From a virus (taxonomy: Duplodnaviria; Caudoviricetes), in the IMG/VR virus record IMGVR_UViG_3300010966_000080, positions 1-58,999 of that record: a stretch of DNA of 58,999 nucleotides, one strand, 5' to 3'. The position numbers and the translations under genes are program-made. Positions 1,467 to 7,742 of the stretch are shown in pieces. A model generated the notes under the pieces. That model worked only from the letters and a program-made list of their open reading frames with translations. It was not told the DNA's origin and made no database searches. Position 1 is the first letter of the stretch. Every line of letters starts with the position of its first letter.

Positions 1467-2054
1467 ATGTTCGACAAACAAGGGGATGCGTTGCGAGACG
1501 CGCTGGAGCGCAGGCCGAGGGGCTTGAAGAACGGGGACAACGTGGAGTACGCGGGTCGGAGGTTCACTGTGTTCGCCATCCAGCAGTGGATGGCGGGCGG
1601 AGCCCCACACGCCGTCGGCCTCGTCTGGGGATCGCGGTGCCCCGAGTGCAACAAGCGCTGGCACCAATGCACCAGCACGAGGCCGGGCAGCCTGAGCGAG
1701 GTGTGTCCGGCGTGCGACGTACTCGGCAGTCAGGAGCCGACGCTAGACGCCCGCGTGGCGAAGGAGTTGCTGACCGCCAGCAGGGAGGCGACCGCGTCGG
1801 TGTCCCCGGATCGTGGGGCCAAGCGGCGCGGTCGCGTCGAGGCCCACGTCATCGAGTGCGCGGGGCTGTTCAGTGGGCGAGACGCGATGAAGCTCGACGA
1901 GTTCATCACCACGGTCACCGAAAAGATGCCTGCGCCCGGAGAAGGCGAGCGTGATACCCGCCGCCAGAGGGTCACGAGGGCCGTCGAAACGCTTGGCAAG
2001 GAACAGGGTGGTCCGCTGTTCTTGAAGAACGGTTTAGTCACCTTTACGTTTTGA
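1467..2054 (+). CDS. Zn-finger protein whose C-terminal domain is paralogous to the primase-helicase C-terminus
   Basis: CPEC...CPAC; KRRGRVE.HV...GERDTRRQRVTRA.ETLGKE..GPL shared with 50463..52499; AGGAG RBS. Confidence 0.8.
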   Translation: MFDKQGDALRDALERRPRGLKNGDNVEYAGRRFTVFAIQQWMAGGAPHAVGLVWGSRCPECNKRWHQCTSTRPGSLSEVCPACDVLGSQEPTLDARVAKELLTASREATASVSPDRGAKRRGRVEAHVIECAGLFSGRDAMKLDEFITTVTEKMPAPGEGERDTRRQRVTRAVETLGKEQGGPLFLKNGLVTFTF

Positions 2055-2300
2055 ATGCAACGCTTGCAGAAAATTACACGCGTTGCGTAGGTTTCGAAAT
2101 GCAACTGAAATTCGGCGGATCGTGCAACGCGAGTAAAACACTGGTATTCAAGGCAAAAAGCCAGATTTACAACGCGCAACTTTTTGCAACCCGTTGCGCA
2201 ACGTTGCGCGGTGCAGGCAAATGCAACGGTGGGGTGGGGCTATAGACTATGTCTATGCCCCCCTAGACGTTGCGTTGCACGGGGTCCGTTGCGTTGTAAA
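2055..2300. other. putative replication origin: GCAAC/GTTGC iteron cluster with hairpin
   Basis: Non-coding and AT-richer; about 13 GCAAC/GTTGC copies; hairpin GGGGC-t-ATAGAC-tat-GTCTAT-GCCCC. Confidence 0.5.
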
Positions 2301-2347: not shown

Positions 2348-2376
2348 TTGTCGGTCCGCCAGTCCGGTGTTATATC
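2348..2376 (+). promoter_or_regulatory. putative sigma70-type promoter of the packaging/structural operon
   Basis: TTGTCG-17 nt-TATATC upstream of terS. Confidence 0.45.
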
Positions 2377-2419
2377 GGTCGGGACTGGAAGCACTGAGAC
2401 CTTCGGAGCAGGCAGAGCC

Positions 2420-2899
2420 ATGACCGCCAAGAGTACCCGCAAGCCGCGCGCGATGAAGTGCCGGACACCTGAGATCGCCACGCGCATCATCGAGGGGCTG
2501 TGTGACGGCGTGACCATGCGCGCGCTGTGTCGGCAGGAGGGCATGCCGAACTGGCGCACGGTGTACGATTGGCTCGAGCAAGACCCCGACTTCGCCGCAC
2601 AGGTCGCCCGCGCTCGGGATTTGGGCTACGAGGCCCTCGCCGAGGACATCTTCGACATCGCGGACAACACCAAGGCGATCAGCGAGCACGTGCAGGTCTC
2701 CAAGCTGCGCATCGACACGCGCCTCAAGCTGCTGGCCTGCTGGAGCCCCAAGCGCTACGGCCCGAAGCAGACGCTCGACGTCGGGAACAAGGACGGCGAG
2801 AAGCTGCAGGTAGAAAACAGCGCGGACAACATGGCCACCGCAGCGGCCTTCGCCGTGGCCGCCGCCACTGCGATGCGTGACGCCAAGCGCGGCGAGTGA
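2420..2899 (+). CDS. terS: terminase small subunit
   Basis: HTH-like IIEGLCDGVTMRALCRQEGMPNWRTVYDW, A.DI.DIAD and KLRIDTRLKLL...P.RYG (Sf6 gp1-like); directly before terL. Confidence 0.85.
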   Translation: MTAKSTRKPRAMKCRTPEIATRIIEGLCDGVTMRALCRQEGMPNWRTVYDWLEQDPDFAAQVARARDLGYEALAEDIFDIADNTKAISEHVQVSKLRIDTRLKLLACWSPKRYGPKQTLDVGNKDGEKLQVENSADNMATAAAFAVAAATAMRDAKRGE

Positions 2900-5178
2900 A
2901 CCTCAGCGACCATGAAGCACTGAAGCGCCAGCTCGCGGCGCTGCCGCTGGAGGTGCTCGCCTACGTCGACTGGCAGCGCCGGTGGACTGAGACCGCACGC
3001 CCGCCGCAGATCCCGCCCAAGACGGACTGGAGCGAGTGCGGGTACCTCGCCGGGCGGGGGTTCGGGAAGACACGCGTCGGGGCTGAGTGGATCACCCGCG
3101 CGGGTTACGAAGACCCGTCCGGCTTCGACAGTTGCGTCATCGCGCCGACCTATCAGGACGTTAAGATCACGTGCTTTGAGGGCGAGAGCGGGATCCTGTC
3201 CGTCCTGCCGCCGGAGCTACTGGTAGAACACAACAAGACGGACATGGTCATCCGCCTGCGCAACATCGCGGGCGGGGTCAGCACGATCCGTGGCTTCACC
3301 GCCGAGAAGCCGGAGCGACTGCGCGGCCCGCAGCACACGCGAGCGTGGTGTTTTGTCGCCGGGACGCTGGTGGCCACACCGCAAGGCGACGTGCCGATTG
3401 AAACGCTGCGGCCCGGAGACGTTGTGCTCACCCGCAAAGGCGCGCGGCGCGTCTCCGCCAACTCTTGTCGCGAGGCAGAGGTCGGCAGCGTAAAGTTTTC
3501 CACTGGTGCCGTTCTGCTTGGCACGACGGACCATCCCGTGTACACACCGGCTGGGTGGACGGACTTGTCCCGTCTGCGTGTCGGAGACGAAGTATGTGCG
3601 ATAGCTGTGTGGAATGGGGTGGCAAACGGTGGCATCGCTACCGGAACGGGTATTACGAGCGAACTGACAAGTCCGTCACGCCGAAGCGGACTGTCAGGCT
3701 TCATCGAGTTATCTGGGAGAGCGCGAACGGCCATATCCCAGATGGTTGGCAAGTTCACCACCGTGACGAGGACGTTGGGCACAACGCTCTTGCCAACCTT
3801 GAGTGCATCCCGGCTGGCGAGCATCGCCGCATCCATCTGTCGAGCAAACCCATCCCTAAGCCTGACTGGGAGCGGAAGCCGCTTGTCGAGTGCAATTGCG
3901 CCGATTGCGGCACGGCGATCCAACGCAAGCGACCCGGCCCGCAGCCCGTTTGCTCCAAGTGCCAGTGCAAGCGTGCTGAAGCTAGGCGCAAGCGCACCAG
4001 TGTTTGCGCGAACTGCGGCGCGCACTTCCAATCCCGCGCCGGAAACTTCTGCAGCCAGCGTTGCGTCAACTTGGCAACCGCAGGGGCTACAACCCGTGTA
4101 TTGCCTCAAGGTCGAGGGCGAGCCTGAGTACTTCGCCAACGGCATTCTCGTACACAACTGCGACGAGCTGGCCGCGTGGCAGTACGATCAGGACACGTGG
4201 GACATGGCCATGATGGGCATGCGCCTCGGCGAGCGCCCGCAGGTGCTGTGGACGACGACGCCCAAGCCCAAGGAGATGATCCGCAAGCTGAGCGCGCCGA
4301 AGGCGGGGCGCGTCATCATTCGCGGCTCGACCTTCGACAACCGCGCCAACCTGCCGCAGAGCTTCTTCGACCAGCTCGAGCAGTACGAGGGCACCACCCT
4401 CGGTCGCCAAGAGATCTACGGCGAGCTCATCGACCCGGAAGAGAGCGGCATCGTCAAGCGCAGCCAATTCAGGCTGTGGCCCGCCGCGCACCCGCTGCCG
4501 AAGTTCGAGTTCATCGTCATGAGCCTCGACACCGCCTTCACCGAGAAGACCTACGACAAGAAGTCCGGCGACAGCGACAGCACGGCCTGCGTGGTCATGG
4601 GCGTCTTCTTCCACGAGAAGCGCTTCAATGCCATGGTGCTCGACTGCTGGGAGGACCAGCTCGGCATGCCCGCCCTGATCCGGCGCGTGCGTAAGGAAAT
4701 GAACACGCCCTACGGCGACGATGACGACGTGGCGTTGATCAAGCCGCTGTTCGGCTCGAGCAAGCCGCTGACCAGTGGCCACAAGCCTGACGTCCTGCTG
4801 ATCGAGGACAAGGGCAGCGGCATCAGCCTGCGCCAGATGCTCGAGGCCGAGGGCATCGACGCCTACGCGTACAATCCCGGCCGCGCCGACAAGCTGACCC
4901 GCCTGCACATGGTCACGCCCGCACTGTCGCGCAAGCTCGTGTGGCTGCCCGAGAGCGACAAACACCCCGGTCGACCGCGCAACTGGATCGAGCCGATGCT
5001 GGCGCAACTCTGCGCGTTCACCGGTCCGGGGAGCATCAAGCACGACGACTACGTCGACGCCTTTGCGCAGGCGCTCAGGCTCATGATGGACAAACGCTGG
5101 CTTGATCCTGTAAAAGCCAAAAAAGACGAACGCGACACCCCGCCACCCAAGGTGGTGGTCAACCCGTACACGCAGTAG
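2896..5178 (+). CDS. terL: terminase large subunit containing an intein
   Basis: Walker A AGRGFGKT; Walker B AW|CDE split by the intein; TTTPK motif; RNase H-like SLDTA...IEDKGSG...HDDYVDA. Confidence 0.95.
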   Translation: MNLSDHEALKRQLAALPLEVLAYVDWQRRWTETARPPQIPPKTDWSECGYLAGRGFGKTRVGAEWITRAGYEDPSGFDSCVIAPTYQDVKITCFEGESGILSVLPPELLVEHNKTDMVIRLRNIAGGVSTIRGFTAEKPERLRGPQHTRAWCFVAGTLVATPQGDVPIETLRPGDVVLTRKGARRVSANSCREAEVGSVKFSTGAVLLGTTDHPVYTPAGWTDLSRLRVGDEVCAIAVWNGVANGGIATGTGITSELTSPSRRSGLSGFIELSGRARTAISQMVGKFTTVTRTLGTTLLPTLSASRLASIAASICRANPSLSLTGSGSRLSSAIAPIAARRSNASDPARSPFAPSASASVLKLGASAPVFARTAARTSNPAPETSAASVASTWQPQGLQPVYCLKVEGEPEYFANGILVHNCDELAAWQYDQDTWDMAMMGMRLGERPQVLWTTTPKPKEMIRKLSAPKAGRVIIRGSTFDNRANLPQSFFDQLEQYEGTTLGRQEIYGELIDPEESGIVKRSQFRLWPAAHPLPKFEFIVMSLDTAFTEKTYDKKSGDSDSTACVVMGVFFHEKRFNAMVLDCWEDQLGMPALIRRVRKEMNTPYGDDDDVALIKPLFGSSKPLTSGHKPDVLLIEDKGSGISLRQMLEAEGIDAYAYNPGRADKLTRLHMVTPALSRKLVWLPESDKHPGRPRNWIEPMLAQLCAFTGPGSIKHDDYVDAFAQALRLMMDKRWLDPVKAKKDERDTPPPKVVVNPYTQ
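3349..4158 (+). mobile_element. intein (270 aa) in TerL Walker B
   Basis: Block A CFVAGTLVAT, block B GTTDHPVY, block F PVYCLKVEGEPEYFANG, block G ILVHN, +1 Cys; removal restores HTRAWCDELAAW. Confidence 0.93.
3594..4127 (+). CDS. HNH endonuclease with zinc ribbons, nested in another frame inside the intein
   Basis: GGAG-N7-ATG; LHRVIWE...IPDGWQVHHRDED..HNALANLECI...EH..IH; CxxC clusters CADC, CSKC, CANC, FCSQRC. Confidence 0.85.
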   Translation: MCDSCVEWGGKRWHRYRNGYYERTDKSVTPKRTVRLHRVIWESANGHIPDGWQVHHRDEDVGHNALANLECIPAGEHRRIHLSSKPIPKPDWERKPLVECNCADCGTAIQRKRPGPQPVCSKCQCKRAEARRKRTSVCANCGAHFQSRAGNFCSQRCVNLATAGATTRVLPQGRGRA

Positions 5179-5189
5179 GACCACACGCC

Positions 5190-7742
5190 ATGGATGAAGA
5201 CGAATACGGCGAGATCGAGCAGCCCAACGGCGAGCGAGTGGACGACGAGTACGGCGAGATGATCGAGCTGGTGCCCGACGCCGAGCCGGACGTCGAGGAC
5301 ACCGAAGACGGTGGCGCCATCGTGCGCCTCGACGACGAGAGCGAGGCCCGCTCGGACGACTTCTACGCCAACCTCGCCGACGACATGTCCGACAGCGACC
5401 TGTCGACGCTGGCCTCACGCTACGTCGACCTGATCGGCAAGGACAAGGACGCGCGCAAGAAGCGAGACGAGCAGTACGAGGAGGGCATCCGCCGCACCGG
5501 TCTGGGCGAGGACGCGCCCGGCGGCGCGCAGTTCGAAGGCGCGAGCAAGGTCGTGCATCCGATGCTGACCGAGGCCTGTGTCGACTTCGCCAGCCGCGCG
5601 ATCAAGGAGCTCTTCCCGCCCGACGGGCCGGTCCGCGACAAGATCGTCGGCGACGTCACCGGCGAGAAGGTCAAGAAGGCCAAGCGCAAGACCGACTTCA
5701 TGAACTGGCAGCTCACCACCCAGAGCACCGAGTTCCGCGCGGAGCTCGAGCAGCTCCTGACGCAGGTGCCACTGGGCGGCGCGCAGTACCTCAAGGCCTC
5801 GTGGAACGAGCAGCGCAACCGGCCGAACTTCCTGTTCGTCGCCATCGACGACATGTTGCTGCCCTTCGCGGCCACCAACTTCTACAGCGCCCAGCGCAAG
5901 ACCCACGTGCAGTACCTGACGCAGCTCGACTACGAGAAGCGCGTCACCTCCGGCATGTACCGCGACGCCGACATCGGCCCGGCCAGCCAAGAGCCTGAGA
6001 CCAGCATCGTCGAGCGCGCCAACGACAAGATCGAGGGGCGCAGCGCGACCAGCTACAACGAGGACGGCCTGCGCACCGTCTACGAGATCTACACCTTCGA
6101 CGACATCGAGGGCGAGGGGCCGCTGCCCTACATCATCTCCATCGACAAGCCCTCCAACAAGGTGCTCGCGATCTACCGCAACTGGGACGAACTGGACGAG
6201 GCTCAAGAGGAGCTCCAGTGGTTCGTCGAGTTCCCCTTCGTCCCGTGGCGTGGCGCCTACCCCATAGGCCTGCCGCACATGGTCGGGGGACTGTCCGCCG
6301 CCGCGACCGGGGCACTGCGCGCGTTGCTTGATGCGGCTCACATCAGCAACAGCCAGACCATGGTCAAGCTGAAGGGCGGCAGCCGGGGCGGGCAGTCTCT
6401 TGAGATCCAGCCGACCCAGACCGTCGAGATCGAGGGCGGCCTCGCCTCCGACGACATCCGCAAGCTGATCATGCCGCTGCCGTACAATCCGCCGAATGCG
6501 GTACTGTTCAGCCTGCTCGGCTTCCTGATCGACGCGGGTAAGGGTGTCATCCGCACCACGATGGATGACGTCTCGAACTCCAACCCCAACGCCCCGGTCG
6601 GCACGACGCTGGCCAAGCTCGAGCAGGGCATGGTGGTCTACAGCGCCATCCACGCCCGCCTGCACAACTCCATGGCCAAGCTGCTGGGCATCCTGCACCG
6701 CCTGAACGCCATGTACCTCGACGACGAGGAGGAGCAGGAGGAAATCGGCGACGAGATCGCCACCCGCGCCGACTTCGAGGGGCCGCTCGACGTCGTGCCG
6801 GTCAGCGACCCCAACATCTTCAGCGAGGCGCAACGCTTCGCGCAGGTGCAGGCCATCGAGCAGCGCGCGCAGGCGATGCCGCAGATGTACAACCTGCGTA
6901 AGGTCGAGGAGCGCATCCTCGACACGCTGAAAATTCCCAATGCGAAGGAGCTGCTCGCCCCGGCCATCGAGCCGAAGGAGCAGAACGCCGTCAACGAGAA
7001 CGTGGCCGCGACACTGGGCCGGGCCGTGCTGGCCTTCCCCGATCAGGACCACATCGCGCACCTCAAGACGCACCTCGCGTACATGACGAACCCGATATTC
7101 GGCGGCAATCCGCTGATCGCCCCGTCCTACATCCCGCCGATGCTGAACCACATCAAGGAGCACATCGCCCTGTGGTACGCGTCGAGCGTCTTCGACGTGT
7201 CGAACGAGGCCACCGGCGGCGACATCGGCGAGGACATGAAGGCGATGAAGGACGACCCCGAGGGCCGCAAGTCGCTCGACCGCATGCTCGCCGAGGCCGC
7301 GTCGCTGGTCCTCGACCACGGCAACGAGATCTTCAAGGCGCTGCCGCCGGTGATCCAGCAGGCTCAGGCCATGATGCAGCAGCTCGCGCCGCCCCCGCCG
7401 ATGGATCCGACACAGGCCGCCATGCAGGCCGCCCAGCTCCAGAACCAGACGGCGCAGCAGCGGCTGCAGCTCGAGGGGCAGAAGGTCCAGCAGCAGGGCC
7501 AGATCAAGCAGGCCGAGATGCAGCAGGATCAGGCCGAGGCGCAGCAGGAGCTGCAGGCCCGCATGGCGCTGGAGATGCAGCGCCAGAATGCCGAGGACAA
7601 TCGCACCGCAGCCGAGCTGCAGGCGCGCATGGCCATGAACACCGAAGACAATCGGACGGCGCTCGAGTTGGCGTCGGCGGAGATTGCCAGCGGCGAACGA
7701 GTTGCGGTCTCGACAGGGACAGGCATCAACCCCGGAGTGTAA
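5190..7742 (+). CDS. portal protein
   Basis: 850 aa after terL; HPMLTEACVDF, APVGTTLA.LEQ, VVPVSDPNIFS; Q-rich C-terminal coiled coil like the P22 barrel. Confidence 0.88.
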   Translation: MDEDEYGEIEQPNGERVDDEYGEMIELVPDAEPDVEDTEDGGAIVRLDDESEARSDDFYANLADDMSDSDLSTLASRYVDLIGKDKDARKKRDEQYEEGIRRTGLGEDAPGGAQFEGASKVVHPMLTEACVDFASRAIKELFPPDGPVRDKIVGDVTGEKVKKAKRKTDFMNWQLTTQSTEFRAELEQLLTQVPLGGAQYLKASWNEQRNRPNFLFVAIDDMLLPFAATNFYSAQRKTHVQYLTQLDYEKRVTSGMYRDADIGPASQEPETSIVERANDKIEGRSATSYNEDGLRTVYEIYTFDDIEGEGPLPYIISIDKPSNKVLAIYRNWDELDEAQEELQWFVEFPFVPWRGAYPIGLPHMVGGLSAAATGALRALLDAAHISNSQTMVKLKGGSRGGQSLEIQPTQTVEIEGGLASDDIRKLIMPLPYNPPNAVLFSLLGFLIDAGKGVIRTTMDDVSNSNPNAPVGTTLAKLEQGMVVYSAIHARLHNSMAKLLGILHRLNAMYLDDEEEQEEIGDEIATRADFEGPLDVVPVSDPNIFSEAQRFAQVQAIEQRAQAMPQMYNLRKVEERILDTLKIPNAKELLAPAIEPKEQNAVNENVAATLGRAVLAFPDQDHIAHLKTHLAYMTNPIFGGNPLIAPSYIPPMLNHIKEHIALWYASSVFDVSNEATGGDIGEDMKAMKDDPEGRKSLDRMLAEAASLVLDHGNEIFKALPPVIQQAQAMMQQLAPPPPMDPTQAAMQAAQLQNQTAQQRLQLEGQKVQQQGQIKQAEMQQDQAEAQQELQARMALEMQRQNAEDNRTAAELQARMAMNTEDNRTALELASAEIASGERVAVSTGTGINPGV

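Follow-up and report, generated by a model that had tools for sequence, protein, structure and literature searches.

An intein and a nuclease gene in two frames of terL

The virus record IMGVR_UViG_3300010966_000080 (58,999 bases, 64.6% G+C, from an environmental sample), a complete record rated 100% complete and referred to here at its full length as the window, carries an intein in the gene for the large terminase subunit (terL), and the DNA of this intein also encodes an HNH nuclease in another reading frame. The terL open reading frame (ORF) matches the profiles Terminase_6N (1.7e-11), Terminase_6C (1.3e-07) and phrog_38 (2.2e-23) in addition to Hint_2. The intein takes up residues 152-421 of the ORF and interrupts the ATPase domain at the site ...RAW|CDE..., a motif that we take to be Walker B. 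An earlier note on this DNA, made from the letters alone, had described the intein as having intact splicing blocks, and this description holds: it starts with C-F-V-A-G, contains T-D-H in block B and V-Y-C-L-K-V...E-Y-F in block F, and ends with V-H-N, followed by Cys+1. In Pfam profile searches it scored 45.5 bits against Hint_2 (cut-off 28.4) and 24.9 bits against Intein_splicing, which is under the cut-off of that profile (35.8). Across 18 aligned inteins C1, T59/H62, H269 and N270 are invariant, and of 19 rows all but L022, which has Ser, show Cys at +1.

The boundaries of the intein are independent of these motifs because they are fixed by intein-less relatives. Caulobacter phage RW has a TerL of 481 aa with the sequence ...ARVW|CDEVAAW..., and the gap in the alignment of this protein to the window protein corresponds exactly to the intein; blastn similarity to RW-like phages (71.1%) starts at query base 1264, which is window position 4159. 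By these alignments, 3349-4158 is a precise, in-frame insertion, an intein of class-1 type. A split intein or fractured gene was ruled out, as terL is one ORF of 760 aa and no nested copy has a break in its host frame. The canonical bifunctional intein does not apply either, since no nuclease family matches the terL frame and the HNH domain lies in the +2 frame. The features of the locus are listed below.

Features of the terL locus in the window (+, strand as given)
Feature	Position	Strand	Basis and remarks
terL precursor ORF	2896..5178	+	760 aa, GTG start; unbroken across the intein
N-extein	2896..3348	+	Ends ...P-Q-H-T-R-A-W; alignment with intein-less RW TerL
Intein, 270 aa, Cys1 to terminal His-Asn	3349..4158	+	Hint_2; boundaries from alignments; mini-intein-like fold
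Intein N-terminal splicing region, residues 1-88, blocks A and B	3349..3612	+	pLDDT (predicted local distance difference test) >90 in blocks 1-8; conserved in 18/18 aligned inteins
GGAG Shine-Dalgarno (SD)-like motif, in intein G-D codons	3583..3586	+	7 nt ahead of HNH ATG
HNH nuclease ORF, +2 (-1) frame, 177 aa + TGA	3594..4127	+	HNH_3 2.9e-12; phrog_15471 1.3e-19; model pLDDT 88.6
TerL-frame spacer, intein residues 89-228	3613..4032	+	Stop-free, S/A/T/R-rich, unconserved, no confident structure
HNH_3 catalytic core	3696..3830	+	Pfam match, residues 78-122 of the ORF beginning at 3465
Two Cys4 zinc-ribbon-like units of the HNH protein	3897..4064	+	C102/C105/C120/C123 and C138/C141/C153/C157
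Overlap with both frames conserved	4033..4127	+	Last HNH zinc knuckle and tail / first strands of intein C-terminal region
Intein C-terminal splicing region, residues 229-270, blocks F and G	4033..4158	+	pLDDT 88-96; conserved in alignment
C-extein, C-D-E-L-A-A-W	4159..5178	+	Cys+1 codon 4159-4161; blastn start and RW alignment

The product of the second frame matched HNH_3 with 46.5 bits (cut-off 24.8), which was its sole Pfam match at E values up to 0.1, and the phrog_15471 family that it also matched is annotated 'HNH endonuclease'. The earlier note had placed a complete 177-aa nuclease with zinc ribbons in this frame, and both the profile match and the cysteine pairs bear this out. Its reading of the ORF ends was likewise correct: the ATG at 3594 overlaps the V-C codons of the intein, and the TGA at 4125-4127 falls in the P-E codons of block F. 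An alignment of 20 HNH sequences shows no variation at H37, H55, H56 and H77 and almost none at N64 and N68, and these residues presumably have catalytic roles. The spacing of the cysteines in the two Cys4 units suggests that they bind zinc; a further Cys pair is found at residues 2-5, and all pairs (2-5, 100-157) lie outside the core (37-81). The 59-kb record contains a single HNH match and no other copy of the element.

In the terL frame, the middle of the intein contains 54% S+A+T+R, compared to 25% in the exteins, and has no conserved columns in the intein alignment. An AlphaFold model of the intein, based on an 18-row alignment, gave a pLDDT >90 for residues 1-88 and 229-270 and <50 for residues 89-228, and matched the Mtu RecA, Ssp DnaB, NpuDnaB and gp41-1 mini-inteins with target-normalised template modelling (TM) scores of 0.7-0.83. 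The HNH frame, modelled from a 20-row alignment, reached a mean pLDDT of 88.6; the in-frame reading thus lacks a recognisable structure (pLDDT <50), while the alternate frame is predicted to fold as a nuclease. The best solved match of the nuclease model was the homing endonuclease I-HmuI, and this similarity is weak (Foldseek E 3.4e-3, TM 0.37; profile E 0.0052). A stop-free, S/A/T/R-rich middle with no nuclease match had been recognised before, and this stands; its length, previously put at about 160 residues, is about 140 as judged by model confidence.

A related locus shows what the intein looks like without its middle. L023:894-1295 encodes a 134-aa mini-intein at the same terL site that has no spacer and keeps just the last 41 codons of the HNH frame, and it looks like a decay stage of the element. 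Because this natural mini-intein does without spacer and HNH, the middle of the intein is dispensable. Together with the lack of stops, of conservation and of model confidence, this supports the view that the spacer is a meaningless, stop-free linker in the terL frame, as had been proposed.

Recurrence, selection and translation signals

When the 177-aa protein was used as a tblastn query, it matched terL of Tetrasphaera phage TJE1, Clostridium phage phiCDHM19 and Rhodobacteraceae phage LS06-2018-MD07 (MD07), each of which has an intact HNH ORF in phase +2 inside a continuous terL with Hint blocks. A scan of viral contigs yielded 24 loci, which together with the window and the three phages account for 31 HNH matches. 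Of these, 28 lie inside a longer ORF whose frame is +1 relative to the HNH frame, and three (L025, L026 and L028) are free-standing genes in which neither of the other frames is open; an open third frame occurs in none of the 31. The same phase was found in 11/11 further loci and in Acinetobacter phage Highwayman (L065). A second viral scan used one pattern taken from the dual-coded motif, and finds nested relatives only and not the share of free-standing genes. Among about 40 copies, including five cultured-phage records, no in-frame HNH copy was seen; several loci are near-duplicates of each other (L015/L016, L048/L049/L051, L054-L056 and L020/L064). The carriers include AT-rich Clostridium and Acinetobacter phages next to Caulobacter-like-host, Rhodobacteraceae and Tetrasphaera phages.

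Two of the records deserve a separate remark. A search of genome contigs for hosts gave one match, L064, a 5277-base contig of a Dehalococcoidales metagenome-assembled genome with a terL and element nearly the same as in L020; it is probably a phage contig that was binned into this genome and is uninformative on the host. In Clostridium phage phiCD119 (L066, AY855346.1, 778-2595), the annotation divides terL into a short 'ter2' and a 'hypothetical ORF3', and the HNH frame is truncated at its N-terminus compared to phiCDHM19, which could be due to real decay or to old sequencing errors.

In all 24 copies analysed for stop codons, the host frame contains none and the third frame 5-33. We compared this to synonymous shuffles of the HNH ORF, in which the protein and the codon pool were kept. 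The shuffles led to an expectation of 1-5 host-frame stops, and the probability of an open host frame ranged from 0.0005 to 0.29 per copy; the lowest value was obtained for phiCDHM19 (locus GC 0.30) and L020, in which 0.05% of the shuffles stayed open. The openness of the host frame is kept down to about 26-35% HNH identity.

Several comparisons point to the nuclease frame as the constrained one. In the exteins, the GC content of the three codon positions fits the terL frame (GC at third positions 0.87-0.91), and in 3594-4127 it fits the HNH frame. Among the 18 copies at the Walker B site, nucleotide identity is 0.57, 0.62 and 0.41 at the first, second and third position of the HNH codons, and amino acid identity over the same bases is 0.475 in the HNH frame compared to 0.296 in the TerL frame, with the HNH value being higher in 153/153 pairs. 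For close relatives, we counted changes in three pairs with 112 differences (a fourth pair was dropped because the lengths differ). Changes that are synonymous in the HNH frame and nonsynonymous in the TerL frame occurred 70 times per 866 opportunities and the reverse class 20 times per 952, which favours the HNH frame with an odds ratio of 4.1 (Fisher p 3.4e-9). Conservation of both frames is seen in alignment columns 166-180, where the intein C-terminal region is overlapped (amino acid identity 0.83 in the HNH frame and 0.63 in the TerL frame). These data support the conclusion that the nuclease frame is the one under purifying selection, as judged from substitution patterns.

The nuclease ORF has candidate signals for its own translation. 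A start codon directly ahead of the HNH domain, with an SD-like 4-mer at -16..-7, is present in 22/24 copies, and in four copies a stop in the HNH frame lies one codon upstream of this start. An X-XXY-YYZ slippery heptamer was not found near the junction in 22/24 copies, including the window, and was seen in two. Around the HNH start, 13 sequences showed no conserved RNA structure (consensus energy -0.65 kcal/mol, 0 covarying pairs). Because the start and SD-like signal are conserved and there is no shared slippery site or RNA structure, independent internal initiation is the best reading, and the nuclease would be made in this way. This agrees with the separate translation of splicing domain and nuclease that had been put forward in the earlier note.

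Insertion sites, mobility and environmental alleles

The composite of intein and overprinted nuclease occurs in at least three places, namely the W|CDE site of terL, a C-terminal terL site and a portal gene. The C-terminal terL site is occupied in TJE1, phiCDHM19, MD07, L027 and Highwayman, and by the second intein of L015/L016. In the latter two loci (L016:3-3083 and L015:385-3513), a single terL ORF of >1000 aa contains two inteins, one at W|CDE and one in the C-terminal nuclease domain of terL, each with its own out-of-frame HNH. The portal gene L014:5440-8526 (Phage_portal_3, 9.1e-74) has a Hint intein with an overprinted HNH at ~6879-7274 in the same +2 phase, and this contig holds a terL intein as well. 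The inteins of L007, L018, L020, L021 and L022 are located 1-4 residues upstream of the W|C point and are followed by K/A-W-x-D-E, which suggests sliding of the site or separate invasions of one motif.

Free-standing relatives of the nuclease adjoin terS, terL or portal genes in 6/6 records examined. We calculated a tree of 38 nucleases, which omits the near-duplicates L010, L015, L049, L051, L054, L056 and L064 as well as the partial L019, the remnant L023, the 534-aa L028 and the truncated L066; L025 and L026 form long branches and their placement is unsure. A branch with 98/98 support divides a Walker B clade from a clade in which nested and free-standing nucleases are mixed. The nested HNH of Highwayman is sister (96/85) to the free-standing HNH of Acinetobacter phage BP10 (L031), and the starred branches of the tree force at least three changes between the nested and the free-standing state. 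The BP10 gene is located before terS, and the terL of this phage (3545-4954) is short enough to be intein-less.

The stretch is present in sequencing runs dated 2017 to 2025, which, like the completeness of the record, is indirect evidence of splicing. Two runs flagged as possible sources of the window DNA, X2 and X3, yielded contigs that differ from the window at 0-1 positions and have no indels. From run X4, which is not flagged as a source, contigs without indels cover only 3419-3717 and 3715-4200, the latter being identical to the window. Contigs in the freshwater runs X4 and X6 join position 3336 to 4159 with 12-15 other letters between; they appear to be intein-less alleles of relatives. 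Over window positions 3300-4300, the depth in these two runs is in the hundreds in the extein flanks and about 3-9 in the intein. Because depth is far lower in the intein, the intein-bearing allele is a small minority among related terL genes in these samples.

Caulobacter phage RW (L030), whose TerL served to define the intein boundaries, has an extra 223-aa coding sequence (2351-3019, minus strand) upstream of its complete terL. It is annotated 'large terminase subunit', looks like a partial ATPase-domain paralogue, and is followed by a small methyltransferase gene (1694-2224, minus strand).

Proposed mechanism and relation to known systems

We consider it likely that the locus is a dual-coding terL intein with a free I-HmuI-like HNH_3 nuclease, in which splicing and homing are served from two frames of one stretch of DNA. 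Profile searches of the two frames returned Hint_2 for one and HNH_3 for the other, each above its cut-off; the relatives keep both frames open, and substitutions favour the nuclease. What the earlier note had observed is confirmed, and its interpretation is partly supported. According to our working model, translation of terL would give a precursor from which the intein excises itself; the spacer would loop out, comparable to the linker of an engineered mini-intein, and active TerL would result. Other ribosomes would initiate inside terL at the GGAG and ATG and produce free nuclease, probably at a low level. In a mixed infection, the nuclease may nick or cut the intein-less terL of related phages near the W|CDE codons, and recombinational repair would copy intein and nuclease into the cut allele, that is, homing, with which the distribution of the element is consistent. 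As for its origin, a mini-intein was most likely invaded by a free-standing HNH gene like those that adjoin terL and portal genes. Few stops occur in the +2 frame of an HNH gene, which would favour this phase.

Several points weigh against this model. Splicing, internal initiation, the cleavage target and homing are, for all members, deduced from sequence. Nicking rather than cutting is a guess, because the similarity to I-HmuI is weak. TJE1 and L027 (2/24 copies) have no SD-like motif, and no RNA run was listed among the sequencing runs with the stretch. In the window alone, 23% of the synonymous shuffles leave the TerL frame open, which is not significant; long off-frame ORFs are common in this genome, and since it is 65% GC an open TerL frame is unremarkable there. 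The significance of the open host frame is therefore a property of the family and not of the window alone, and because the copies are related their individual probabilities must not be multiplied. The joints in X4 and X6 stem from related phages and not from this one, as the matching sides are short (24-36 letters) and were aligned at 85% likeness. Finally, the free-standing relatives lie beside terminase and portal genes, and therefore a role in packaging also fits.

Such a role would make the nuclease a helper of the terminase that is merely housed in the intein and is not a homing enzyme. In addition to the 6/6 records with free-standing relatives next to terS, terL or portal genes, it could draw on Xu and Gupta (PMC3592412), who raise as speculation that phage HNH nickases encoded close to terminase genes take part in packaging. 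This seems very unlikely to us in light of the sporadic distribution of the element: related TerLs lack it, L023 lost the nuclease and kept the intein, and the element is not confined to one terL site, being found at another and in a portal gene too. The protein family is HNH_3 with a homing enzyme as best solved match, and no CxxC pair is found within the catalytic core, unlike in the family of Xu and Gupta. Alternatively, the nuclease of this phage might be an inactive relic, with selection reflecting past activity and the intein now retained only owing to the rarity of precise loss. Stages of this sort are expected under the homing-cycle model, and L023 demonstrates that decay occurs in the family; the window ORF, however, is full length, with its start, SD-like motif and all family-invariant residues, and close, recent pairs are still under selection in the HNH frame, which renders a relic distinctly unlikely.

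Programmed -1 frameshifting out of the terL frame would produce a fusion of N-extein, N-terminal intein part and HNH and no free protein. In its favour, all copies have the HNH in the -1 frame relative to terL, and in the window this frame has no stop over the 64 codons ahead of the ATG. We nevertheless judge it very improbable, given that slippery sites are missing from nearly all copies, that four copies have a stop just before the start, that no RNA structure is conserved there, and that start codon and SD-like motif are conserved. Next to no credence is left for an assembly or sequencing artefact, in which two compensating frameshift errors would mask an ordinary intein with an in-frame HNH. 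For a metagenomic contig this is an a priori possibility, and nothing else speaks for it; the approximately 40 copies, from independent contigs and five cultured-phage records, share the same phase, the contigs of X2, X3 and X4 (the last with partial cover) have no indels relative to the window, and the HNH ORF has its own start and stop.

If the two-frame model applies, it can be extended to the more tentative idea, which we rate as possible though somewhat doubtful, that intein and HNH_3 nuclease form one old, co-adapted mobile module. On this view, ~30 codons at the 3' end would do duty for both proteins, the ribosome binding site would be drawn from conserved G-D codons of the intein, the module would have travelled as one piece among phages whose hosts span at least four bacterial phyla, as well as from terL to portal sites or back, and it would exchange with free-standing nuclease genes at the terL-portal junction. 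Initiation on the late terL message would then tie the supply of nuclease to the time of packaging. Such a module would be the most widespread natural dual-coding homing element and a system to test the origin of overprinted genes.

Inteins are usually drawn as one polypeptide for splicing and homing; here the two functions are assigned to two frames, an arrangement that is stable across very different phages. The element supports the view that inteins gained nucleases by invasion of free-standing nuclease genes, and it is a clear natural example of selection holding a meaningless frame open. It is also an annotation trap, as gene callers report terL only, or split it as in phiCD119, and miss the nuclease. 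The cultured carriers TJE1, phiCDHM19 and Highwayman allow tests of internal initiation and homing.

The belief expressed in the earlier note that this architecture was undescribed is refuted by two preprints. In actinophages, Gosselin, Arsenault and Gogarten (bioRxiv 10.1101/2025.01.02.630785) found inteins whose nuclease is read in a different frame; one type has an endonuclease VII-like enzyme in 'frame 3' of the same strand, and antisense cases from 1998 and 2002 are cited. Their 'frame 3' type resembles the terL element in having a same-strand nuclease ORF between the splicing blocks in the third frame and a host frame that is open and structureless; terL is among the hosts, and the origin proposed is likewise a free-standing nuclease gene invading an intein. 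It differs in the nuclease, which here is of the HNH_3 family, I-HmuI-like and equipped with two zinc-ribbon-like units, and in its actinophage carriers, compared to the Caulobacter-like-host, Clostridium, Acinetobacter, Rhodobacteraceae and Tetrasphaera phages found here; tblastn with two members returned no Mycobacterium, Gordonia or similar phages among the matches listed. In the second preprint, Phillips, DeSimone and Gogarten (bioRxiv 10.64898/2026.09.14.751524) describe the dnaX intein of cyanobacteria, in which a '+2ORF' encodes a LAGLIDADG nuclease. As for terL, the out-of-frame nuclease is under purifying selection and the overlap is relaxed in the host frame, alleles with a mini-intein occur side by side with empty ones, and secondary invasion is proposed; unlike for the terL element, the host gene is cellular, the nuclease is of the LAGLIDADG type and the intein is another one. 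Our literature search, which reached few subscription journals and not the supplementary files of the preprint from 2025, found no paper on an HNH_3 nuclease overprinted in terL inteins, and nothing linking TJE1 with an intein or phiCD119 with intein and terminase.

Other systems share single traits. The ShiLan-domain insertion (Arsenault et al. 2025, PMC11855218), by which a phage methylase gene conceals an HNH in another frame, is also an HNH ORF overprinted on an open host gene and raises the same question of internal initiation. It has no splicing domain, stays in the protein and has no detected ribosome binding site, unlike the terL element, in which a complete Hint domain is predicted to remove the spacer and the start follows an SD-like motif. 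Fractured genes (Dassa et al. 2009, PMC2677866) similarly have a free-standing nuclease gene lodged in an intein; there, the host gene is in two ORFs and trans-splicing takes place, whereas terL here is continuous. I-HmuI of Bacillus phage SPO1 (PDB 1u3e), an intron-encoded HNH nicking homing endonuclease, is the best match in fold and profile, and its H...N...N/H core and the preceding beta strands align with the window protein; besides the weak similarity, it differs in being intron-encoded and without the two C-terminal Cys4 units. The [CxxC]2 zinc site within the catalytic domain, a trait of the nickases described in 2013 by Xu and Gupta, is absent from the nuclease of the window. Taken together, the terL element belongs to a recently described kind, the inteins with an out-of-frame nuclease, to which it adds an HNH_3 nuclease family with Cys4 units, a host range far beyond actinophages, sites in both terL and portal genes, and comparative evidence.

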